The translations under genes and the position numbers were made by a program. Under the pieces are notes generated by a model, which saw only the letters and a list, made by a program, of their open reading frames with translations, did not search any database and was not told where the DNA came from. From contig JWZX01003119.1 of assembly GCA_001275005.1 (NCBI GenBank), positions 1 to 46,254 on the forward strand: DNA of 46,254 nucleotides. Direction: 5' to 3'. Below are positions 10,245 to 43,876 of the stretch, one piece after another. The first letter of the stretch is position 1. The number at the start of each line of letters is the position of its first letter. The stretch comes from Chrysochromulina tobinii. Taxonomy: Eukaryota.

Positions 10245-13200
10245 ATGGCTACAAGTAGCTCGCGGGGTATTCAGCGCGCCGGAGCGGAGCGCCTCTTCAG
10301 TCGTGCGCTGCACGACCTGCTGCTGCTGCCCGATGGCGTCGGCGGCTGGCACGAGCTCACGCCAGTGCAGGCGTGGCGGCTGCGCGACCGGCTCAAGACA
10401 GTGGCAGCCGCACTCGTGCTCTGCCTCAACGTGGGCGTCGACCCGCCAGATGTGATCAAGCCCGACCCGTGCGCGCGCCTCGAGTGCTGGCTCGACCCCG
10501 CATCGATGCCCGCGCAGAAGGCGCTCGAGGCCATCGGAAAGGCGCTGCAGGCACAGTACGAGTGCTGGCAGCCGCGCGCGTCCTACCGGCTGTGTGCCGA
10601 CCCGACGCTCGAGGAGCTGCGTAAGGTGTGCGTCGGGCTACGGCGCAATCACGGTGGCCGCGAGGAGCGGCTGCTTCTGCACTTCAACGGGCATGGCGTG
10701 CCGCGCCCATCGGTCAACGGCGAGCTGTGGGTCTTCAACCGATCGTTCACGCAGTACATCCCTGTGTCGGCGTACGATCTGCAGCTGTGGCTGGGCTCGC
10801 CGTGCATCCTGGTGCTCGACTGCTCGAACGCGGCGCGGGTCATCGAGGCGCTCGGCACCATGATGGCCGCGCCCGCCGCGGGCGGTGCCTCGGCTGGCGG
10901 CGCGGCTGGCGGCGCGAGCGGCGGTGCGAGCGGCGCATCGCCTGCCGATGGCGCTGGCGCAGGGGTCGGCGGCACAGCCAGAGGCGTGACAGGCGCGGGT
11001 GGTGGCAGCGGCGCTGGCGCGGCGGGCAGCGGCGGCGCGCTCGGAGCCGGCGGCGACGGCACCACCGGAGCAAAGGGCCCCGCCGTGGGCTCTCCCGGTG
11101 AGGGCGGGGCGGTGCTCGGCAAGGACGTGATTGTGCTCGGTGCTTGCGACTCGACGGCGCAGCTGCCGACGAACCCGGAGTTTCCAGCGGACGTCTTCAC
11201 GTGCTGCCTCACCACGCCGCTGCGCATGGCGCTGCGCTTCGCCTGCCGCAACACGCTGCTCTACCTTCCCTCTGGTCCGATCGATACGCTTCCGGGTGCA
11301 CTGGGCGACCGTCGCTCGCCTCTCGGGGAGCTGAACTGGATCTTCACGGCGATCACGGACTCGATCGCGTGGGACGTGCTGCCGCGTGAGCTCTTCCGCC
11401 GCCTCTTCCGCCAAGACCTGCTTCTCGCCTCTCTGCTACGCAACTTTCTGCTCGCGCAGCGCATCCTCTCGCGCGCGGGCCTCTACCCCGTCTCCGCACC
11501 CGCGCTGCCGCCCATGCACCACCACCCACTGTGGGAGTCGTTCGACCTCGTGATCGAGGCGGCCATCTGCGACGCGAACGCGCGGCGCGGGCGCGAGGCG
11601 CCGCCGCCGCCGCCCTCGCCCTTCTTCTCAGACCAGCTCACCGCATTCGAAGTTTGGCTGCGGCTCGGCTCGCGTGGCACGCGCCGTCCGCCCGAGCAGC
11701 TGCCCATCCTATTGCAGGTGCTGCTCTCGCCCACTGATGGCCGCTGATTGCTACTGATGGCTTCTGACTGATTGCTACTGATCGATTGCCACTGATTGCC
11801 ACTGATTCGGGCAGATGCTGCTCTCGCCCGATCTTGACGAACCTTTGATTGCCTCCCTCATCAGGTGCTGCTCTCGCCCACGCATCGGCTGCGCGCGCTG
11901 CTGCTGCTTGGCCGCTTCGTGACGCTCGGCGCGTGGGCGGTCAGCGAGATGCTCTCGGTCGGCATCTTTCCCTACATTCTCAAGCTCCTCCTCTCGGCCG
12001 CTTCCGAGCTGCGCCCACCCTTGCTCTTCATTTGGGCCAGAGTGCTCCTGCATGACTCGTCGTGTCAGGCCGACCTTCAGCGTGACGCGGCGCACGCCTT
12101 TTTCATCGACATCCTGCGCCCGTCGGCCACTGCTGAGACGACGCGCTCGGGGCAGACGCCGTCGTATGGGTGGGTCGAAGGGATGGGCGCACCGACACCC
12201 CCCGTGCCACACTGCCTACTGGCCCTCTTTGTACTTGCCGCCGTGTGCCGTCAGCAGCCGGAGGGGCGCGCCGCGTGCCTGCGCCAGAACCTGCCCGAGT
12301 TGCTCGCTCAGCAGCTCGATCTCGCCCTCGATCTCGATCTCGACGGCGATTGCGACGGCGGCGGCGACGGCGGCGGCGATGGCGGCGATGGCGGCGGCGA
12401 TGGCGGCGGCGATGGCGGCGGCGATGAGCGACGCGAAGCAGCGGCAGAGGTGGCGGCCCGCTGTGGGCTGGACAGCACGGTCGGCTCGCTGCGCTCCCAG
12501 TGGATCGTGTGGATCTGCCTGTGCACCTCCCAGCTCTGTGAAGAGGACCAAGCCGCTCAGGATGCCGTGCATGCATGCCGCCTTGACCAACGGCTGCTGC
12601 GGGTGCTCCAAGAGGTGGAGCCCGAGGCGCGCGCGGCCGCACTGTACGCGCTCACGGCCGTGTGCTCGAGCATGGCTTCCTCGGGCGCGCCCTCAGCGCC
12701 CACGACAACGCCAGCCTCGGGCGCGCCCTCAGCGCCCACGACGACGCCAGCCTCGGGCGCGCCCTCGGCGCCCACGACGACGCCAGCCTCGGGCGCGCCC
12801 TCAGCGCCCACGACGACGCCAGCAGAAGCAGCGTGTCCGGTACCAGTGGGCGCTGTCGTGGGCGCGTCTGTGGCTTCGCCACCCTCCGCCGCCGAGGACT
12901 GGCGGCTCGAGCTCGGAGCCGAGGCAGTGCTCACGATCGCGGACGGCTCTCCCATCGTGCGTGCGCAGCTCTGTCGCCTGCTGCTCACGCTCACGCGTCG
13001 GCACCCAGGCCGGTGTGCCGATGGGTGCCATCAGCTGCTCTGGCTCCGCGCGCAGTCGATGAGCACTTTGGGCTCCGTGCACGGCGGCGGCGGCTTGAGC
13101 AGCGGTGGGATGCTGCCCTTTTCATCCAGTGCGCTCGGAGCAGGCGTCTACACCACTGGAGGGGGGGGCGAGCTCGCGAGGGGAAGCGCCGCGCCGCAGC

Positions 13201-16200
13201 TGGCTGGACGCCCTCCCCTCCCCGGCGCATCAGATCTGTCGCAAGGGTACACGCGCCATCTACTCTCGCAAGGGTACATGCAGGAGGCGCCCGGCGCGGG
13301 CGGCGCCGGCGCCGGCGCCGGCGCCGGCTCGAGGAACAGCAGCAACAGCAGCCTGGATGCATGCGGCTCACCCGGCGGAGTTTCGATGGGTGGGGCGGCC
13401 GTGGGCACTGTCATGGGCGCTGTCGTGGGCACTGGCGGGGGTGAGGGCGTTGTCGTGGGCACTGGCGGGGGTGAGGGCGTGGGCAGCACCGGCGCGGAGA
13501 GCGTCGAGGGCATCGAGAGCCGCGTATCGCTCACTTCGCTCACTGGTCTGCCAAGGGGTATGAGCACGAGCGCCGGTATGGGCTCGAGCTCGCGCGAGCT
13601 CGACACGACGACCGTCGTATCGGGGCTGACCCCGACCCTCGGCCTCGGAGAAGCGTTTGCGAGCCATGCGATCATGATGAAGCATGCCATGGTGCTCGAG
13701 CCACGGATGATTGGACACTCTCTGGCGACCGCCGCTGAGCTCTCTGCGACCCTCTTTGCAGCGGCCATGAGGGTGACGGCCTCGGCCGCGAGCATGGCGA
13801 CGCCCACGGCGACGCCCAAGCTGTCGGCGGCGCATGGTGGCCAAGAGCAGCCGCCCCTGCGCGCCCGCGCCGTGCTGAGCGCTGTCCACGGAGGCAGCGC
13901 CCCCCGCCCCGCTGTCAAAGCGCCGCCTTCGCCACTGCGCGGTCAAAGCCTCTCGCCACTGCGCGGTCCAAGCATCGTCAATGAGGCGTTACAGATCGCC
14001 GAGCGTGTCACGGCCGCAGCGCGCGATGTCGCCGCCGCCGAGAGCGATGCCGCGGATGCGGCGGCCGCGATGCTGGCCGTCGAGGGCGGCGCCGTGGCGG
14101 CGGCGACAATTAAGCTGTGTGCGGCACTGATCCTGATCGCCCGGGACTCGGTGCCGCGCATCGCCACGCGCGCGCAGCAACAGTTGCGTGCCCTCGTGCC
14201 ACTCGCGTCCCTATCCTCGCCGATGCATCCCACCGCCACACCTCTATTGCCGCGCGCCGCCCCCACGCCTGAGATGTCGCGGCGCGCCGGCGCGAGCGGC
14301 GGCGGGGCTGGGTGTGTGCCCACGTCGGGCAGTGAGGACAGCGGCGCCGAGCGCAGCGGAGCTTTTTTTGGAGCGCGGCTGCAGCGGCCGATGGCGCTGG
14401 CGCTGGGGTCGGCGGCCGGTGGTGCCGGCAGTGCTGGCGCCGAGAATCTCGACGAAACGAGTCATCCGGGCATACCGCCATACACGGGAGCCATTCACAC
14501 GGGAGCCATTCACACGGGAGCCATTCACACGGGAGCCATTCACACGGGAGCCATTCACACGGGAGCCATGGCCATGCCACGTGGCGCTGTGCCGGCGCGT
14601 TCACTCACTACGACGCCGTTTCGAGATGGTACGCCGCCGGTGGCGCTGACCCCGGAGCCTCCTATGGGAGGGATTGCGAACGGTGCGGACGCGTTCGCTC
14701 AGCTGATGCCACGCGCCGAGCTGAGCGCCGAGTTGCCCCCTCCGCTCGAGCTGGGCGGCGACATGTACGAGTGGGCCACCCAGCAGCTCCACAGGGGCTT
14801 TCCTACCATCAGCGATCGCGGCGAGATCCAACCTCCCCGCGGGCAAGAGAGGCGTGCCCACCCATTTTTGGCTGTCGCGGCGGCCCTTGTCGACCCCGCC
14901 GTCGCGGCGGCGGCGGCGGCGGTGGCCGATGCCGCCAACGGCGGCGCGGGCGCCATATCGAGCGCCAACGGGGGCGCGGGCACCGGCGACGCCGGCGTCT
15001 CGACGCCGAGCACACTGGAGCGCCCCGCCAGACCCACGAAGAGCTATACGATGGCTTTTGGGGGGCTACGCATCGGCGGCGGCGACGACCGTGAACGGCA
15101 GCAGGCGGTGAGCCTCAAGTGTGAAGACCAGCTAGCAACCCTTGACAGCGGCTCCCCGCGCTGCTCGTCGCTAGCGCTCCATGCGAGTGAGCCGCTCCTG
15201 GTCGCCGCCTCGGCACGTGAGGAGGTCTCTGTGTGGAACTACAAGACGAAGCAGCGCATCAATGCCTTTGCCAACGCGAACCCGGCCGGCTCTCGCTGCA
15301 CCTCGATGCACCTGCTCGAATCGGCTGGAAGTCTCGTCAATGGGCATGCGTCCGGCTTACTCCTCGTCGGCTCCAGTGAAGGCGCCGTGCGTATCTGGCG
15401 TCAATGGGCGTTGCCTGGCGAGCAGCAGATGGTGGGCTCCTTTTTGGCAGCGGACCGGTCCGCTGCTGCCACCGAAGCAGCGAGTCTGCACGACAGTCGA
15501 CTGTTCACTGCGTACCAGCCTCAGGGTGCGCTCCTCAGCGTCGCGGCGAGCACCTCGAATGTCATCCGCCAGTGGGACCTGGTCGCCGAACGGTGCGCGC
15601 GCCAGCTCACAGTCGACGTGGCCGACGCCTTCTCCGTGCGCGCTCTCGCCTCGGACCAGCATTCATCGCTTCTCGTCGTGGGGGGTACCGACGGCGCGAC
15701 ACGTATTATCGACCCGCGACTTCCCTCCGCGGATTGCACCGTGGCCACGGTCGGCGCTTTCGCGTCGCGCGCGCACATCGCGCAGCTGACCCTGCAGACC
15801 TCCGATCGTCCCTGGGTCGCTATCGCCACGCATCTGGGCGACATGGGCGTGTGGGACCTGCGCCGCGCCGTATCGAGCGCTTCGGCCCTTCCCCACAGCT
15901 CATCGTCGGCCGCGCCACTCGTGCACACCATCACCTCGCACAAGTCTGGCCTCTCGGCCCTCTCGCTGCACGACCACCTGCCTCTGCTCGCCTCGGGCTC
16001 TCGCAATCAATTCATCAAGCTCTTCGACCTGACCGCGCTCCGCGACAACGCCGGCCCCGCACGTGAGCTCTCGACGATCCGTTACTTTGACGGCTTCCTT
16101 GGAGCCCGTATCGGGCCCGTCACGTGCCTCGCCTTCCACCCGACCAAGCCCCTCCTCGCCGTCGGCGCGACTGACTCCGTCGTCAGCATCTACTCATCGT

Positions 16201-20950: not shown

Positions 20951-23900
20951 ATGGCGAACGCGACAGGCGCACGTCCTGCGACCGCCCCTTCCACCACCGA
21001 TGAGGGCGTGACCGTGGCTGTGCGCATCCGGCCGCTGCTCGCCCGCGATAAGGCTGAGGGTGCGCGCGAGTGCCTGCGCAAGGTCGCCGGCGAGCCGCAG
21101 GTGCTCATTGGCGCCGACCGCGCGTTCACCTACAATCACGTGTACGACCTGGCGGCCTCTCAGGAGGCTGTCTTCGACGGCTGCGTCAAGGGGCTCGTGG
21201 AAAGCGTACTCTCGGGCTACAATGCGACCATCTTCGCGTACGGCCAGACTGGCAGCGGCAAGACGCACACGATGGGCTCGAGCTGCTCAGCCGACGCGGA
21301 GATTCCCGAGGACACTGCGCTCACCGAGGACTCTGGGCTGATCCCGCGCGCGATCGCTGCGCTCTTCGCCGGCGCCGCGGCGACCGAGGGCACCGAGTGT
21401 CGCGCGACTGCCGCCTTCATCGAGATCTACTGCGAGGAGGTGCAAGATCTCCTCCAGTGGAATGCGGAGGAGAGCAAGCTCACGACACTTCCCATCCGAG
21501 AGACTCCCGACGGCAGCCTGACGTTGAGCGGCCAGAAGCGGCGCGCCGTGAGCTCGGTGGCCGAGGCGATGCGCGTGCTCGCCGACGGCTCCCGCAACCG
21601 CGCGACCGGCTCCACGGCGATGAATGCGACCTCGTCGCGCTCGCATGCCATCTTCTCTCTCGAGCTCGATCTCAAGGTGCGATGTTGGCCATCGGAGTGA
21701 CATCGGAGTGCCAACGGAGTGACTTCGGAGTGCCATCTGAGTGCCATCTGAGTGTCATCAAGTTCCACTGACGGGCAAGATGATAGTCCGACGTGTGAAA
21801 GGCAAGACCTTCTGAGTATGACCACTGATGGCCACTGATGACCACTGATGTGATGACCACTGATGTGATGACCACTGATGACCACTGATGTGATGACCAC
21901 TGATGACCACTGATGACCACTGATGACCACTGATGACAGGTGAAAGGCAAGACCTTCTCGCCCAAGCTGCACTTTGTCGACCTGGCAGGCTCTGAGCGTG
22001 CGAAGCGGACCGGGGCGAGTGGAGAGCGCCTCAAGGAGGGCATTGAGATTAACAAGGGTCTTCTCGCGCTTGGGAACGTCATCAACGCGCTCTGCGAGAA
22101 GCACTCTCACGTGCCCTACCGCGACAGCAAGCTCACGCGTCTGCTCCAGGTGAGTGCCCCTGATTGCGCCCCAGTGCTCCTGATTGCCACTGATTGCAAC
22201 CGAGTGCCCCTAACTGCAACTTGATTGCTTCTCGTCGAGAGCCGCTGATGGGTACTGATGTGCGCTCGTGCCGGTACTGCAGGATTCACTGGGCGGCAAT
22301 TCGAAGACGCTCATGCTCGCGTGTGTCTCGCCCGGAGATGCCGATCTCGAGGAGACGCTCAATACGCTCAAGTACGCGAACCGCGCGCGCCAAATTAAGA
22401 ACAAGCCGGTTGTCGCGCAGGACCCAATGCAGGCGCGCCTCTCCGAGCTGGTGGAGACGATCAGCACGCTGCAGACGCGCCTGACGCACTACGAGGCGGG
22501 CGGCGCGCCGCTGCCTCCCCTCGCGCAGCTGGGTGCGCTGGGGACGAGTGCCGCGGGCGGTGCGAGCGGCGCGGGCGCGGCCTCAGCCGACCAGGTGACG
22601 GCGTTGATGAAGCGCCACTGATCGCCACTGATTGCCACTGATTATGGCCACCGATGACCACCGATGACCACCGATGACCACTGATGGCCACTGATGGCCA
22701 CCGATGACCACCGATGACCACCGATGACCACTTCCTGATTGGCGCAGGTGAAGGCACTGATGAAGCGTGTGGCGCAGCTCGAGAAGGAGAATTGCATGCT
22801 GCGAGAGCGAATCGCACAGCATGTCGCTCCGCTCAGCGGAGTTGCGGGCGCGGCGGCGGCGGCGGCGACGGGCGAGGTGGGCACGGTGGAGCCAGCCTCG
22901 GAGGCGGCGGAGGGCGACGAGGGCGGCGAGGAGGCGGCGGCATATGCGGCCGAGGCGATGGAGGCGGAGCTCGAATTCCAGACCAAGCAAGGTGATTGGC
23001 GCTGAGTGCCACTGATGATCGCTGAGTCTCACTCTTGATAGTGCCACTGATGAATATGTCCTCTGATGAATATGTCAACTGATGATGGCTGCGTGCCACT
23101 GATGATCGCGAAGTCTCTCTCTTGATGGCGCCACTGATGATGGCGATGAATGTCCACTGATCCTTGCTCCACTCATGGCGCAGGTGAGCTGTCCGAGCAG
23201 CTCGAGACTCTGAATGCGTCCCTCGCCATCAAGCAGGCTCTCCTCGCGGCGCAGCGCGAGCGCGAGGGGCGCGGCAGCTCGGCTACTGAAGGCGGCGAGG
23301 GCGGCGTGGACCTGGCCGGAGGGGAGGGCGGCGTGACGGAGGATGTCAACTCACTGCAGCAGCAGCTCGCGAGCCTCGAAGTGAAGCTCGCCGCCGTCGA
23401 GACCGAGCGCGATGCCTTGGCCATGCGCCAGGTGCGCGCGTCGTCCCGAGCGCACATCACGGCGCTCTGAGAGCGATCTCGAACGAGCTCGATCGAGCTC
23501 GAGCCCGATGCCCGATGGAGATGATGTCGGCAAACATAATCTATCCCACTGACCGACTGAAAAGTCCTCATGATAGACGACCACTGCTCGCCACTGATCC
23601 ATGAAGCACCACCCCTTGCTTCAGCTCCCCACCCCTTCCCCTTTGCCCCAAACCCCTATCCCGTACTCTCACCGCCTTCCCTCACGCTGACCGTGCCGTG
23701 AACGGCGGTGCTGTGCCGGGTGATGCTGTCACGGGTGCAGGCGAGCGGGAAGGCAGCCGACGCGCGTAAGCTCGAGGCCCTCGAGGCGGAGATCGCGAGA
23801 TTGCGCCGGCAGCACGCGCAGCAGGCGACCGTCCTCCAGGTGAGTGCCACTGATGGCCTTTGATGGCCTCGGAGCGCCTTTGATCGCCACCCTTTGGTGC

Positions 23901-26858
23901 TCCAGGCGAAACGCGAGGCGGCGGAGCGCGTGGCGCAGCTGCAGAACGAGATCGAGCTCATCAGGGCCCAAAAGGCCGAAATCGGGCGGAGGCAGCGGGA
24001 GGAGGCCGCGTCGCACCGGGCACACAAGGTGGCGCGCGAGCATGAGTTTCGTCAATTGCAGCGCAAGGAGGAGCGGACGGCGTCGCAGCTCGCGAGGCTC
24101 GAGCTCGAGTACGAGAATGACGCCGTGATTGTGCCGTGATCGTGATTGTGTCGAGATTGTGTCGAGATCGTGATTGTGCCGTGATCGTACAATCCCTCTG
24201 CGGGGTGCCTCTTGATTGCCGCGGATTCCCTCTTGATGACCTTTTGGTTGCCTCTTGATAGCCGCTGATGCGCACTGGCTGGGTGCGCGCAGATACGCGA
24301 AGCAGGCGAGCGTGCTCAAGCGTAAGCAGGAGGAGATCGTCGCCGCGCAGAAGAAGATGCGCTCTCAGGAGGAGATGGCCAAGGCGGCGGCAGCCCGCCG
24401 ACAGGGAGCCCCCAGTGCAGCAACCGCCGGTCCGGGCGGCGGTCAAGGCGGCGGTCCGGGCGGCGGTCCCGGCGGCGGAGGGGGCGTCAACGGCGGCGGC
24501 ACGACTCCACGAATGCCTCTCGGGGGTTCGAACGGCAATGGCGCTCACAACGGCGCCCCGCCGCTCTCGGCACGCGGCACCAAGCCCGGGGGGGGGCTGG
24601 GGGGATCCTCGGGGTCTACCCGCCCGAGCGTCTCGATGGCCACCACGGCTTCGATGCAGGCGAAGCAGGAGGGTAAACGCGCTGATGAGGCCGACAAGGT
24701 GCGCGGGGTGCATCTCTCTGAGGTGGATCCTCTTGAGTGCATCTCTGAGTGCGCCTCTGGGTGTGCCTCTGATGACTTCCCTGATGACCTATCTGATGAC
24801 CTCGGTGAGCATTTTCGCTGAGCTTTTCGCCGTGCTTGCAGGCGGTGTCGGCGATGGCGGCGCGGCCCGCGGCATGGCTCAAGGAGGAGGTGACGGCCGT
24901 TACAGCAGGCCAGCAGCTTCGGGAGCAGGTGAGTGCGATGATTGGCACTGAGTGCTATGGATGGCTTCGGATGGCCACTGAATGCAACCGTTGCGCTGCT
25001 CCAGGTGGCAATGACGATTGAGCTCCGTCGTCAGTGTGCCCTCAAGCTGCAAGCCATCGAGCTGCGGGCGGAGGAGGCGTCACAGGCGATGACAGCCTAT
25101 GAGGGCGGCGACGCGAGCTCATCCGCGGCCGAGGCGGCGGCGGAGATGGCGTCACGCCAGGCGGAGGCAGAGGCCCTTCGCCTCAAGGTCGCTCATTACT
25201 CGTCGGAGCTGGTGAGCTTGCAGACGAAACTCGTTCACCAGGAGTCGTCGGAGACGGCGGTGGCGAAGCTCGAGGCGGTACCCGACCTGAAGCAGGCTAA
25301 GGCGATGCTCAAGGCGGCCTTCCCACAGGTGATTGCGACCGATGGCCTCTCGTCGCACTCATGGCGCTACTGATCCCTACCGATCCCTACCGATGATGGT
25401 CTGATGGGTGCAGATTGCGACTGCTTGCGACTGATTGCGGCTTTGACTCATTTTTCTCTCATTACGACTCATTGCGGCTATGTCCTCCTTGTCATCCATT
25501 CCACAGCTCGTCAACCTGCAGCTGAGCGTGCACAAGCGCGAGCAGCAGCTCGAGGCCAAGGCGCGCGAGGTGAGCGATGCCAGCTGATTGCTCATGATTG
25601 CTCATGATTGCAGCTGGAGGCCAAGGCGCGCAAATGAGCGACGCAGTTGAGCTCGCCTCGTGTGCAGCTGATTGCGATTGACTCGTCTTTCATGCGTTGC
25701 ATGCAGGTGAGCGACGCTGTCGAGCTCGCCTCCTCACTGCGTGTGCAGCTCGTGCGTGAGCGCAAGCAGGCCGACACACGCTCACACGAAGCACACACCG
25801 CGATGGCCCTCGCCGACGAGCGCGCGCGAGCGCTGCAGCGTCAGCTCGAGGCGCTGTCGCGCGCGAACGGGGCTGCCCAGGGCGGCGCGGCACAGGACGC
25901 GAGGGCTGCCGTGGCTTCAGAGATGGAGGCCGTGCCGCCGCTTCCCGCGCTGAAGAGCGATGTGGGCAGCTGTGCAGACCTTGACAAGAGGCTCGCGCAG
26001 ATCAAGGCGAAGCATGCTGCGGCACCGAGCTTTGCACTGCCCATCGCCCCTCCGCCAGCGCCAAAGGGCGCGGCGGAGGCGGCGGCTCTGAAGGCCGCGC
26101 CTGCGGCCGCTTCGTCAAAGCAGGCTGCTCGTCGTCTGTCTATGATCAAGCTCGCACGCAAAGGGGGGGAAGAGGAAGAAGAGGAGGAGGACGAGGAGGG
26201 GAGTGAGGATGAAGAGGACGAGGAAGAGGACGAGGAAGAGGAAGAGGACAGCGATGTCGATTGGGAGGAGACTGAGGAGGCTCAGATGGTCACCTCGAAG
26301 CGAGAGCGTTCCAAGGCGAAGGAGGCCGCCCCTGTACCGGTACTCGAGCTCGGACTTCGCCCGCGCCGTGGCGGGCGCCGCTCCGCCGACCAGGCAGAGG
26401 ACGCGGGGGACAAGCCCGCGCCGCCTGATGAAAAGGGGACGCCCGCGGAGGTTGGGGGGGGTGGCCTGACGAAACTGGAGGCGAGCTCCGCCGCCAATCC
26501 GGGCGCATCACAACCGACGCCGCCGAACGCGCGACCGTTTGCGCAGATGCAGTCCAAGGAGGCGGGAGATGCGGGCGAGATCGAGCTCACGAGCCTTGAG
26601 AACGTCAAGGGTGCCGCCGCCGCCAAGAAGCTGGGCGCGAAGCCGCGTGCGCCCACGACGACGCCTTCCGCCGCCGCCGCCGCCAAGCCGCGCGCCGCCT
26701 TGGGGCGCATCGATGGCAACGCCGCCGGTGCGGATGTTGCGGGTGGGTTCTCGAAGGCGGTGACGAAACCTGCATCGGCCAAGGGCGAGGCGGGTGGCAC
26801 TCGTAAGTTGCTCAACACGACGCAGGTGGTCTCGGTCAACTTGGTTGACAACGAGTGA
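20951..26858 (+). CDS. Kinesin-4 family motor (KIF4/KIF21/KIF27-like), 12 exons
   Basis: Motor motifs [68 protein letters not shown], then a long coiled coil. Exons 20951-21676, 21940-22149, 22283-22594, 22748-22991, 23184-23431, 23741-23839, 23906-24108, 24293-24698, 24842-24928, 25005-25328, 25507-25569, 25707-26858; all GT-AG and frame-consistent. Confidence 0.9.
21818..21937 (+). repeat. Intronic 10-bp array (GACCACTGAT)n
   Basis: Tandem GACCACTGAT units running up to the acceptor of kinesin intron 1. Confidence 0.9.
22614..22731 (+). repeat. Intronic 10-bp array (GCCACTGATT / GACCACCGAT)n
   Basis: Tandem 10-mers filling kinesin intron 3. Confidence 0.9.
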
Positions 26859-39264: not shown

Positions 39265-42200
39265 TTACGAGCTGCTCATTCCGCCGTCCGCGACGCCGCT
39301 GCCGCTCCCGCCATCCTTGCCGCCGCCGCCGCCGCCCTTCTTATGGCGCTTCTTCGGCTTTCCGCCCTTGCCCTTCCCTTCCGGGATCGGCGAGACCTCA
39401 CTGGCGGGGCTGCTTTCGTGCCCGCCGATTCCCCCGAAGGTGCGCGGCGCGTCGCTCCGGGCACTCGGTGAGGCGGCCAGGAAGCTCTGGTCGGCCGCGT
39501 TGGGCTCGATGTCGGCGAAGAAGGAGTCAATGAGCGCGTTGAAGACCGTGTGTGGCCCCTCGGGCCACGCGAGCATCGAGAACCCCATCTCCGTGAGCTC
39601 CAGAGTGTGCACCTGATGAAGGGGACACTCCGTGTCGATCAGATGCAATCAGATGCAATCTGACGCAATCAGACGCAATCGGACGCAATCAGACGCAATC
39701 AGATGGCCCTGACCTGATGAAGGGTACACTCCGTGTCGACAAGATGCACTCAGACCCAATCAGACGCAATCAGACACAATCACCTACTTGTCGATCAGGT
39801 GCAATCAGACCCAATCAGATGGCAATCAGATGGCCCTCACCTCAGCCTTGCCCGGCCCGGCGCGCGTGATGAGAAGGTCGCATCGAAACGCGACCGTTGG
39901 CTCGGCGCTGCGGCAGCGTAGCCACGTGAGCCAGTGGCGCACGAGCCGGCTCGCCTTTCGCTCCGCATCCTCCATAGCGACGCTATCGTTCGCGAACCAG
40001 GTCGAGATTGCGGCAGATCGCTCGAGCTTTACAAAGTCGCGTAGGTAGCCGTCCGGATCCACCCGCTCGCAGGTGGAATAGATCAGGTGTTCGATGCGCC
40101 CGTTGACCACGAAGCAGCGTAGCTCAAAGTGGTTCTTGCAAAAGTCCTGCACGAGGATTGCGGTGGACTCCACACCCTGGGTGGTGACCAGTCCTTGCAT
40201 AGCCTCGGCGAGCTGTGCTTCCCCCCGGAAGATGCGTACCTAATTAGGGAGGCACTCGCAGGTGCTCAGAGGCCATCAGAGTCCATCAGAGGCCACCAGA
40301 GGCCATCAGAGTCCATCAGAGGCCATCAGAGGCCATCAGAGGCCATCAGAGGCCATCAGAGGCCATCAGAGGCCATCAGAGGCCATCAGAGGCCATCAGA
40401 GGCACTCAGAGGCACTCAGAGGCACTCAGAGGCACTCAGAGGCACTCAGAGGCACTCAGAGGCACTCAGAGGCACTCAGAGGCACTCAGATGGCACTCAA
40501 TGACACTCAGAGGCAATCAACGGCGCTAGAGGCACTCAATAGCAATCACCTCGCCCTCGCGGATCAAGATGAAGGAGACGCCCGGGTCGCCCTCCCGAAA
40601 GAGGAGATCACCCTCGCTGAAGTCGACCGACTGGAAGGCGTTGAGCACCGTCTCACGCTCGGATGAGGAAAGGTACCTGTGGGGGGACACAGCGCCGTCC
40701 TGAGCACTTGCATGCTGGGCCGTTGCACGCTCGGATGAGCGGAGGAGTCCCGAATGAGGGGCGCCGTCCTGAGCGCGCCCTTCATGGAACTTGTAATCGA
40801 GCCATCAGGCCAATCAAGGGCAATTACCGAAAGAGGGGCGCCGTCCTGAGCGTGTCCTTCATGATCTTGTAGTCGAGCTGCAGCTGCAGAGGGCCGAGGA
40901 GCTTGACGAACTCTTCGCGCTCGAGCAGGATGGCCGTGACGCGGCCCAGAGCGATGCAGTCGGCGGCGCGGGGTTCGTCACGGAGCAGCGCGCGCTCCCC
41001 TGATGATGGAGGCAATCAATCATCAGGCGCACACAGCACACAGGCGCCATCAGACGCCAACAGACGCCATCAGTCACGCAGGGTTCGTCACGGAGCCGTT
41101 CGCGCGCGCTCACCAAAGTACTCCGATGGCAATCAGACGCAATCAGACGCAATCAGACCCTCACCAAAGTACTCCGACGGACCATAGGTCTTGACATGCT
41201 TCTGGTTGACGAAACACTGGACCTCGCCCTCCTTGACAATGAAGAAGCTGTGCCCCGGCTCGTTCTGACGGATGATCACCTGGGATCCGGAGGAGGGCCG
41301 TCGAGTTTCGTTACAGCAGCCGTCGAGTTTCGTTACAGTCACAATCACAGGGCCATGCGAGGCTGTGCAGGGCTTTCGAGTTTCGTTACAGCGGCAATCA
41401 CAGGGCCATGCGAGGCTGTGCAGGGCTTTCGAGTTTCGTTACAGTCACAATCACAGGGCCATGCGAGGCTGTGACTATCACAGTGCCATCAGTGCCATCA
41501 GTGCCATCAGTGCCAATGGCAACATAACTCAAATTTGCTCAGAGGCCATCAAGGGCACTCACCTCGCCCGGCTGGTACTCGCGGTGGGTGCACTCCTCCA
41601 AAATCGCCTCCCGTTCATGCTCGCTCAGATGGGACAGGAGCGGTACGTTGCTCAGCACCTGTGTGGGGAAGTGGGCGCGCCGTGGTGAGCGCTCGCATGC
41701 GGGGGGCACAGGAGCGGCACGTTGCGCTCGCGCCGTGGTGAGCACCTCGCGCGTAAAGGACATCTCCACCAACTCGGTCAGCGGGCCGGTGATCTCAATT
41801 AACGTCTTGCGCTCAATCTTGGCGAGCACAACGGGCGTCGTCGCGAGCACGTCGTACGCGCGGGGTTCGTCACTTAAGAGCGAGCGCATGCCGAAGTAGT
41901 CGCAGCGCTGCAAGGTGCCCATCACAACGCCGTCGGGGAGGACCTGCCAAATATGGGAACAAACATATGGTTCATCAGCTCAGCTCGGCGCCCGTTCAGC
42001 TCGCCGTGGATTCATCAGCGTAGCTGCCTAATATGGGATCAAACATATGGTTTCGTCAGCGTACCTGGTTGATGGAGCCCTTGAGGATAATGTAGAGGGC
42101 AGCTCCGATCTCGCCGTGCGAGACCACCTGTGGGGGAAGGGCGCCGTGGTGAGCACTTGCATGCAGGGTACTGTTGAGGGCAGATCCGATCTCGCCGTGC

Positions 42201-43876
42201 GAGATCACCTTTTGGCCTGCCTCGAAGTGCATCTCGACGAAGGCGTCCGCAATCTGGTCGAATCTCGCCTGCGTACAGTCAATCAGTGGCAATCAGTGGC
42301 AATCAGTGGCAATCAGTGGCAATCAGTGGCAATCAGTGGCAATCTGGTCGAATCTCGCCTGCTCGAGCCCCTTGAGGATGCTGATGGCCTTGAGGGCGCG
42401 GCTTATGGCATTGCGCGTATCCATCGCGTCGGTGATCGAGATCTCGCGGTACACCTGACGAGGGAGGCAATCAGAGGTCATCGGAGGTCATCAGAGGCCA
42501 TCGGAGGTCATATGAGGTCATCCTCCGAGGTCATATGAGGTCATCCTCCGAGGTCATCAGAGGTCATCTCCGAGGCCATCCGAGGTCATCAGCGAGGTCA
42601 TCAGCGAGGTCGCGCGAGATGCACACCTTGCGAGGGAGCGCCCATAGCTTCGCCGTGTCCGACGAACACACAACTGATGCCTGGCGCGGCTGATTGTACC
42701 TGATGACGGAGTTCATCACGAACGCCATCAGAGAGGCCATCCACGGCAAATCCGAGAGGCAATCCGAGGTCATCAGAGGTCATCAGCCGCAATCAGCCGC
42801 AATCAGCCGCAATCAGCCGCCATCAGAGAGGCTATCCACGGCAAATCCGAGAGGCAATCCGAGAGGCGATCAGAGGTCATCAGCCGCCATCAGCCGCCAT
42901 CAGCCACCATCAGCCACCATCAGCCACCATCAGCCGCAATCAGCCGCCATCAGCCACCATCAGCCGCAATCAGCCACAATCAGCCGCCATCAGCCACCAC
43001 CATCAGCCGCCATCAGCCGCCATCAGCCTCCATCAGCCTCCATCAGCCGCCATCAGCCGTCTTCACATTCACAGCATACATGAGCCCGAGCTCGCCGAAC
43101 GCGTCGCCCCGCTCACGCATCTGGACGAGCTTCACATGCTCCGAGTCCTCCCACGACGAGAAGCGCGAGACCACCGTCTTCACATTCACAGCCTCGGGGC
43201 GTAGATTCATCTTCGATGCGAGGCTCTCGGAGATTGCGTCGGAGATGGCGGGAGGTTTCCAGCCAACCGCGTGGTTGTTGGCGCGCATGTCGCGGAAGAT
43301 GTGGAAGGTGCCACTGTCCACGACGTAAAAGTTGTCGGTCGCGCCGCCGGAGAGCATCTCGCCTTGCTGGATGACGACCTCATCGCGCGTCGTCTGGACG
43401 GCCACCATCACGTCGATGGTGAGATCTCGCTGGCTCTCGGACATCTCGTTGAACAGGATGCAGCCGTCGATCGCTTTGCGGAGCATCGCGCGTGTGGCTG
43501 GGTCCTTGGCGCCCTGGGACGCTGTGTCCATGAGCACGCGCGTCGACTGGCGGCTCACCATGGCGGACGTATTCTCGCCCACGACGCCCGCGCGGCGCCC
43601 GCGCGAACCTTGACGTTCCAGCAAGCCCTCGATCACCTTGTCGTCGAGCGTCTTCTGGCTGCGCTCGTACGAAAATGTGGTGGTCGTCTGACGCTTGGTC
43701 TTCCTGAAGGAGCTGCTGGAGGAGACGACGGGCCTCTCATCACCCGGAGAGGACAACGGTGCCGCTTTGGCGGGAACGCTGCTTCCGCAGCCCCTGCGCA
43801 CGAGTGTCAGCCAGGGCGATTGAGCAGCGGCAATCGAGGAGCGTGCAACAGGAGCCAGCAGCAGGAGTGCCGACAC
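39265..43876 (-). CDS. Multi-cyclic-nucleotide-binding-domain protein (PKA-R/PKG-like N-half) joined to an ATP-grasp-like C-terminal domain; 12 exons, start codon unresolved
   Basis: RGRRAGVVGE hinge; CNB cassettes FGELGLMYNQPRQAS, FGMRSLLSDEPRAYD and FGERALLRDEPRAAD; partial fourth CNB; then ILVQDF..FELRCFVVNG..FRCDLLI..LELTEMG. Exons (minus) 43876-43080, 42699-42627, 42454-42359, 42268-42209, 42127-42065, 41943-41746, 41658-41563, 41279-41165, 40999-40828, 40676-40550, 40239-39841, 39612-39265; all frame-consistent. Confidence 0.75.
40262..40512 (-). repeat. Intronic 10-bp satellite with two blocks, (GGCCATCAGA)n then (GGCACTCAGA)n
   Basis: About 24 tandem 10-mers with a unit switch at about 40400. 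Confidence 0.95.
41304..41473 (-). repeat. Intronic ~53-bp tandem repeat x~3
   Basis: GAGTTTCGTTACAGTCACAATCACAGGGCCATGCGAGGCTGTGCAGGGCTTTC repeated within intron 41280-41562. Confidence 0.85.
42281..42344 (-). repeat. Intronic perfect 10-bp array (AATCAGTGGC)x6
   Basis: Direct reading; fills a 90-nt GC-AG intron. Confidence 0.95.
42770..43058 (-). repeat. Intronic 10-bp array (CATCAGCCGC / AATCAGCCGC)n
   Basis: Direct reading; intron 42700-43079. Confidence 0.9.

Follow-up and report, generated by a model that had tools for sequence, protein, structure and literature searches.

Copies of their own splice junctions in introns of a cGMP-dependent-kinase-like gene of Chrysochromulina tobinii

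Introns 8 and 9 of a cGMP-dependent-kinase-like (PKG-like) gene of Chrysochromulina tobinii each contain a decayed, non-coding copy of the sequence around their own splice junction. Copies of flanking exon sequence are recurrent and lineage-wide within our sample of 30 introns, half of which retain them in readable form within a repeated plan: a donor taken from an exon, an acceptor taken from a shared cassette, and a filler of decamers. These introns were probably born by local DNA duplication of a segment that was then intron-less, and were remodelled later. The window analysed is the whole stretch of 46,254 nucleotides (contig JWZX01003119.1), which is eukaryotic DNA of about 63% GC; the closest named homologs of its kinesin are those of Prymnesium parvum and Emiliania huxleyi. 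The coordinates of the features are collected in Table 1.

Table 1. Features of the window, with the evidence on which each is placed
Feature	Positions	Strand	Evidence
PKG-like exon 8, ends ...EYF G, phase 1	41165..41279	-	RNA joints in 4 runs; L001
PKG-like exon 9, cNMP domain end, ...TAPLF R	40828..40999	-	RNA joints; L001; domain match
PKG-like exon 10, the gene's last exon within the window	40550..40676	-	RNA joints; L001
Intron 8, GT-AG, 165 nt: donor, decamers, junction copy, decamers, acceptor cassette A	41000..41164	-	RNA, alignments
Junction-spanning copy in intron 8, mRNA -16..+33	41077..41129	-	alignment
Intron 9, GT-AG, 151 nt: donor, decamer-like filler, junction copy, acceptor cassette B	40677..40827	-	RNA, alignments
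Junction-spanning copy in intron 9, mRNA -51..+29, 83% identity	40720..40802	-	alignment
Acceptor cassette B in intron 9, common to 4 other introns of the set	40677..40719	-	alignment
PKG intron 6: degenerate junction-spanning copy (-7..+40, GT deleted) and cassette B	41659..41745	-	RNA joints, alignment
PKG intron 4: next-exon copy of 44 nt at the start, followed by cassette B	42128..42208	-	RNA joints, alignment
PKG intron 3, GC-AG: identical next-exon copy of 20 nt at the start, followed by decamers	42269..42358	-	RNA joints, alignment
19-nt identical pair: intron 1 (43057-43075) and exon 1 (43174-43192)	43057..43192	-	relatives compared
Kinesin intron 11 (predicted): junction-spanning copy at about 25610-25669, AG/GT changed to AA/AT	25570..25706	+	ORF continuity, homology
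Raptor-like intron (predicted): 17-nt next-exon copy at 5' end, cassette A	11718..11864	+	alignments

The host gene, its introns 8 and 9, and their alleles

Both introns lie in a minus-strand gene whose homologs carry the name cGMP-dependent protein kinase. The transcript contig L001 encodes four cNMP domains (four stretches matching PF00027) and a kinase domain (PF00069, E 2.8e-70), which is the layout of the cGMP-dependent protein kinase-like class, with tandem cNMP-binding domains and then a Ser/Thr kinase domain. The initial annotation had spoken of a "cNMP gene", a name that fits the domains and can now be made more exact. RNA evidence was taken from contigs of 4 runs, out of 14 RNA runs listed. 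Splice joints at 40673->40825 (cut +3, CT..AC) and 40998->41164 (cut +1) were present in all four, and give exactly the two introns that had been proposed from the sequence, 40677-40827 and 41000-41164. L001 matches the spliced window sequence at 100% over 1490 nt; nine introns of the gene are each backed by 3 or 4 RNA runs, and the spliced reading frame is open for 571 codons.

Positions 36-88 of intron 8 (window 41129-41077) align to the mRNA across the intron's own junction with a score of 67, and positions 26-108 of intron 9 (window 40802-40720) do so with a score of 95. A stricter junction score, which demands alignment on both sides of the junction and for which the null maxima served as cut-offs, came to 27 and 23, respectively; the highest value among 550 cross-gene intron/junction pairs was 11. 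The copy in intron 8 was thus confirmed as first described; the one in intron 9 also spans its junction, but is 6 nt longer than the 40726-40802 given originally. The copies cover 53 of 165 nt in intron 8 and 83 of 151 nt in intron 9, and both are direct, frameshifted relative to the exon reading and interrupted by stops in some frames. The core of the intron 8 copy runs from 41081 to 41126, with the copied junction between 41114 and 41113, where it reads G-T-GAG against G-G-GAG in the mRNA and carries a 4-nt insertion. The GT at this copied junction is a potential cryptic donor, the use of which would meet a stop after 10 codons. The intron 9 copy is noisy for about 10 nt past the junction, and the GT at its copied junction is now GG.

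Divergence of the copies from the exons is about 17-22%, while exon 9 shows 1 and 3 differences per 172 nt between alleles; the copies are therefore either older than the alleles or the product of an error-prone polymerase. In L002, both introns are identical to those of the window, copies included, and the copies of introns 8 and 9 are also present in L003 and L004. DNA contigs from another study cross the intron-9 copy (X15 40702-40851) or reach into the intron-8 copy (X15 40881-41096 and X18 40960-41094). As the copies recur in other alleles and in DNA metagenomes, they are not assembly artefacts. Local duplication has gone on in the alleles: intron 8 of L003 and L004 contains a duplicate of the exon/intron boundary in which GT is changed to CT, and half of the copy in intron 9 of L004 is tandemly duplicated. 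At the copied junction of intron 8, the window and L002 read GT and L003 and L004 read TT, with GG in all exons. No sufficiently close ortholog was found for deciding the silent-site ancestry of GGT versus GGG.

It is extremely improbable that the copies were produced by chimeric cDNA reads during assembly or represent duplicated alternative exons. The window does seem to be misjoined nearby, within the decamer array at 40240-40549, but the copies, diverged from the exons as described, are found in three other assemblies with allele-specific changes as well as in the DNA contigs of the other study. They are also frameshifted and have no exon-like flanks, and the RNA shows canonical junctions. 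The probable contig misjoin itself is seen as follows: the kinase exons after exon 10, present in L001 and in genomic L004, are missing from the window, where an unrelated gene follows (39400-40239, no Pfam match); the repeat unit switches in the middle of the array, and L002 ends inside it.

None of the alleles seen in this lineage is intron-less: both introns are present in all of them and in the DNA runs. Four unlabelled runs are DNA with all introns; their joint table consists mostly of repeats, and no joint at a splice site is among the 15 joints listed, out of 339, for the DNA runs. A metagenome scan over 22 of 64 parts yielded at least 7 loci, of which two, L006 and L007, encode distant kinases with about 28-30% identity and did not count as evidence of gain. 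Neither viral contigs nor GTDB contigs gave a match in motif scans for further DNA of the lineage.

Two other differences between the loci were observed. Intron 7 (window 41280-41562) is 283 nt long with 53-nt repeats, and its counterpart at L003:49-129 consists of 81 nt of decamers; as the exons are about 99% alike, intron turnover must be very fast. At L001:1570-1580, about 85 nt of L004 exon 12 are missing between two short repeats ending in GAG. The ends of this gap are not GT-AG, so it reflects an assembly or reverse-transcription skip and not splicing.

Flank copies and shared parts in thirty introns

The survey covered 30 introns in 6 genes, all belonging to one lineage. Of these introns, 16 are transcript-backed, 10 of them being in the window and backed by RNA joints and 6 being L004 introns delimited by comparison with L001; reading frame and homology served to predict the other 14. 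Among the predicted ones, the donor of kinesin intron 7 and the acceptor of kinesin intron 5 are uncertain. Copies of the intron's own junction exceeded the null maximum in 6 of the 30, as opposed to 0 of 550 cross-gene pairs. These are PKG introns 6, 8 and 9, L004 introns 10 and 14, and kinesin intron 11 (5 of the 16 transcript-backed introns). The junction score of the Raptor-like intron is 8, the null maximum being 11. When flank copies of any kind were considered, 15 of 30 introns exceeded the null maxima. Direct copies scoring at least 28 occur in 12 introns, inverted ones in none of the 30.

The 5' end of the intron is a copy of the next exon in 7 of 30 introns (5 at the cut-off used for the 3' count), and the 3' end is a copy of the previous exon in 1 of 30 (p=0.07 against even odds). 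The introns form a graded series, from a 5' copy only (introns 3, 4, L004_i12 and kinesin 3), through a 5' copy plus an internal one (Raptor and kinesin 11), to an internal copy only (introns 8 and 9). Intron 4 is the plainest form of the architecture. The GC donor of intron 3 derives from its perfect 20-nt copy of the next exon. The Raptor-like intron has a second, internal copy at 11811-11829, in which GT is changed to AT; altogether, 6 internal copies belong to introns followed by an exon that opens with GT, and 5 of them no longer have this GT at the copied junction. L004_i14 contains a clean junction copy of 41+14 nt at 91% identity.

The remaining intron sequence is largely made of common parts. 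Decamer cores occur 71 times in sense and 0 times in antisense orientation within 4.8 kb of introns, and 9 times in the remaining 42 kb; to judge from its CTGAT motif, the core may supply branch points. Shared 3' cassettes end 6 (cassette A) and 5 (cassette B) of the 30 introns, and positions 109-151 of intron 9, which constitute cassette B, align to introns 4, L004_i12 and g36. An exon-derived acceptor above the null was found among the 30 introns in L004_i15 only. The depth of related DNA is in the thousands at 42088-42189 and 42394-42495, the shared cassettes and decamers being very abundant. Intron 8 is situated at TG/GG and intron 9 at CG/GT, while 14 of 30 introns are at AG/GT. The boundary repeats of introns 8 and 9 measure 1+1 nt and 3+1 nt, respectively; across the set, such repeats range from 0 to 24. 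Only two sub-threshold chance matches were returned by Rfam.

Shared cassettes of such abundance, together with reports of introners in Emiliania and in the MAG of a marine Chrysochromulina sp., would fit an origin of the introns as introner (transposon) insertions with unusually long or later extended target-site duplications. This origin is very unlikely. Of 435 intron pairs, just 2 can be aligned from end to end, and neither of these includes intron 8 or 9. Scores for terminal inverted repeats (TIRs) are at background across the 30 introns. Internal copies of 20-80 nt are unlike target-site duplications (TSDs) of 4 bp. The Chrysochromulina introners described so far are reported to carry a 5' site and co-opt a 3' site, the reverse of the present pattern.

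Two side observations concern neighbouring genes. The Raptor-like gene (10245-16200) has one intron in about 6 kb and the adjoining KIF4-like kinesin (20951-26858) has 11 predicted introns, showing that intron density is very uneven between genes. The intron at 39613-39840, in the gene next to the PKG-like gene, repeats its 3' end internally (about 70 nt, 89%) and thus has two candidate acceptors, the distal one of which is used in one RNA run.

Age of the introns and source of the copies

To place the introns in time, ORFs that end or begin in intron read-through were taken as presumably intron-blind calls on genomic DNA. Among the PKG orthologs of this kind, no insertion is present in P0131 across window sites 1-13, in P0132 across sites 1-9, in P0133 across sites 6-15 and in P0139 across sites 6-9. 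The intron-8 and intron-9 sites are insertion-free in all four, with P0139 frameshifting just past the latter. P0133 belongs to a 5-row clade with the window (support 99/99), and P0131 and P0132 fall outside it; this tree omits P0136, P0139, P0141 and other matches, and the junk tails of P0131, P0132 and P0007 were trimmed. The kinesin relatives, placed by a quick tree only, include four without an intron at sites 1-2 (P0010, P0011, P0014 and P0017) and P0018, in which 7 of 9 covered window intron sites are empty, site 9 is shared and site 5 is probably shared.

Intron gain in this lineage appears to be the simpler reading of these protein-level comparisons with distant orthologs: four likely-genomic ORFs are empty and all close alleles are intron-bearing. 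Against it, the orthologs that have no intron there are remote, sharing about 56-62% identity over the query, and are taken as genomic on account of their junk tails; P0128, the closest ortholog, is callable neither as genomic nor as a transcript. The initial annotation had regarded the copies as fossils of the pre-intron state, and most likely they do record that state, as likely-genomic ortholog ORFs are intron-free at the very sites. It had also proposed multiplication of the segment, which is a likely route, and had held that a junction-spanning copy needs an intron-less allele or mRNA as template, a requirement that the data do not bear out in this form. The 7 introns that start with the downstream exon provide a junction-like template in DNA, and L003 and L004 show that an exon/intron boundary can be duplicated inside intron 8.

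If the introns were indeed born by local DNA duplication, error-prone local copying, either by slippage or by synthesis-dependent end joining at a break, would have repeated 20-80 nt in direct orientation, once or several times. The insertion would also have gained sense decamers and one shared 3' cassette with branch point and AG, likely from other introns, and its donor would usually be the GT or GC that opens the duplicated downstream exon. Survival would be limited to insertions that are spliced out cleanly. The internal junction copy could stem from the same multi-copy event or from a re-duplication of the exon/intron boundary (exon end plus next-exon start). Internal splice dinucleotides would then mostly be lost, perhaps under selection, and the 5' copy would be eroded by decamer turnover. 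RNA is not needed for any of this, as many introns open with copied next-exon sequence, the boundaries themselves are duplicated, and exons are hit as well.

That exons are also hit can be seen in exon 1. The 19-nt piece shared with intron 1 is absent from exon 1 in 6 of 6 relatives and is at the start of intron 1 in 5 of 6, and exon 1 of the window reads PEAVNVKT where six relatives have PEEAKT, a change in protein length of two residues. Likely, then, the piece was copied from intron to exon in the window. Relatives have in-frame duplications of their own in exon 1: a 7-aa repeat in P0002-3, and in P0004-6 a repeated GEMLSGG with patchwork filler between. The duplications in P0002-P0006 could be either tolerated insertions or young introns that are read through. 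Being far from junctions, such exon 1 duplications indicate that local copying is not tied to junctions.

Several observations speak against birth by DNA duplication. Introns 8 and 9 are not at AG/GT and have boundary repeats of 1-3 nt only. Kinesin intron 5, which is apparently older, has a weak copy of the upstream exon (score 25, 68% identity); as it is probably shared with P0018 and yet flank-copied, flank copying can postdate birth. Most copies have an imperfect junction, such as would result from jumping over an intron already in place. In that event, the introns would be older, and a DNA polymerase would later have copied the exon end and jumped the existing intron through microhomology between the intron start and the next-exon start, with no intron-less template involved. 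The intron 8 copy can be read in this manner as exon end, GTGAG (the intron's own donor) and next exon, joined at GAG, and local copying after birth, in the alleles and in kinesin intron 5, is in keeping with it. We nevertheless consider such jumps an unlikely source, because they leave unexplained both the 7 of 30 introns that open with the next exon in register and the ortholog ORFs without these introns, and because the junction copy of L004_i14 is clean.

A spliced template would also yield junction-spanning copies. Thus, RNA- or cDNA-templated repair of breaks in pre-existing introns might have inserted a piece of spliced mRNA, junction included. RNA-templated break repair is known in human cells, where, according to PMC12065846, it yields whole-intron deletions. 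For the present introns, this route is rather improbable and received no positive support. Copies of neighbouring junctions, as an mRNA could supply, passed the cut-off in 1 of 48 adjacent tests and 1 of 320 tests of other junctions in the same gene. The lone adjacent case, in intron 4, was rejected, since a colinear DNA alignment scores 28 and the mRNA 12. There were 0 inverted copies, and duplications of a similar kind lie within exon 1, distant from any junction. Moreover, mRNA would presumably prime the downstream broken end, which should leave upstream-exon copies at 3' ends; the opposite is seen, 7:1. It is equally improbable that spliced mRNA is routinely written into its own introns during break repair, so that introns would archive junctions as a heritable, genome-wide scar that adds sequence. 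If this were true, the scar of RNA-templated repair would add sequence rather than delete introns.

Comparison with known routes of intron gain

For most gained introns, the literature at hand gives no traceable source, and beyond introner bursts, exon-derived introns are documented there only sporadically. Birth of the present introns by local DNA duplication would come close to intron gain by tandem duplication (the Rogers model; PMC3443670 and PMC4974935, in the portions available), with which they share flank-derived sequence, direct orientation and a donor from the duplicated exon. Unlike in that model, no duplicated AGGT serves as both donor and acceptor, the acceptor coming instead from a cassette common to unrelated genes. 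Nor does the whole intron consist of duplicated exon, as the copy makes up a third to half of it, and the present introns hold internal junction-spanning copies. In a potato case of an exon-derived intron, too, the acceptor signals are described as intronic and not exonic. As to frequency, the tandem-duplication review (PMC3443670) reports, in its accessible text, 188 events over seven taxa, and surveys of Drosophila and a mite (PMC2809761, bioRxiv 051292) mention in theirs one or no such case, the Drosophila study having a single reminiscent event; here, 15 of 30 introns carry flank copies.

Break-repair introns of Daphnia, as far as PMC4202315 is accessible, resemble ours in being insertions with direct repeats and in continuing internal duplication while young (61% of 90 young introns). 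They differ in that their exon repeats are 4-12 bp long and situated at the ends of AT-rich introns, whereas here copies of 20-80 nt are often internal and accompanied by a shared filler. Templated insertions made by SD-MMEJ / polymerase theta likewise copy break flanks, possibly in several rounds; by the available account (PMC7407515), this pathway gives direct or inverted repeats, whereas the present copies are direct only.

Introners (PMC9860276, PMC12130899, in their accessible portions) are alike in comprising many apparently lineage-specific introns with sequence common to non-homologous introns. In contrast, the sharing here is confined to cassettes of 19-40 nt and decamer tracts, with no end-to-end families, TIRs or fixed TSD among 30 introns. 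Introners are described from other haptophytes, including families in the Chrysochromulina sp. MAG (bioRxiv 2022.06.06.494994, PMC9860276), and in the accessible part of the PMC9860276 supplement, the two assemblies of cultured Chrysochromulina are named nowhere but among the genomes searched. Haptophyte terms do not occur in the accessible text of PMC12130899, and that of the C. tobin genome paper mentions "intron" once. In the literature searched, we found no report of haptophyte introns with flank or junction copies; papers under subscription, the genome paper of Emiliania and supplements on bioRxiv lay outside this search and may describe the decamers.

If the pattern is genome-wide, it would constitute a way of gaining introns in large numbers without transposons, in a living population that has been sampled, and birth, remodelling and selection on cryptic splice sites would become countable, the alleles still being different from each other. 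If birth by DNA duplication holds, the lineage would be a rare readable record of the origin of new introns. Such introns allow a direct, genome-scale test of DNA versus RNA as the template. They are also a source of error in assembly and gene prediction, to judge from the probable misjoin at 40240-40549. Compared with the systems above, the C. tobinii introns represent a known route of intron gain in a new form, one notable for its frequency and its patchwork design.
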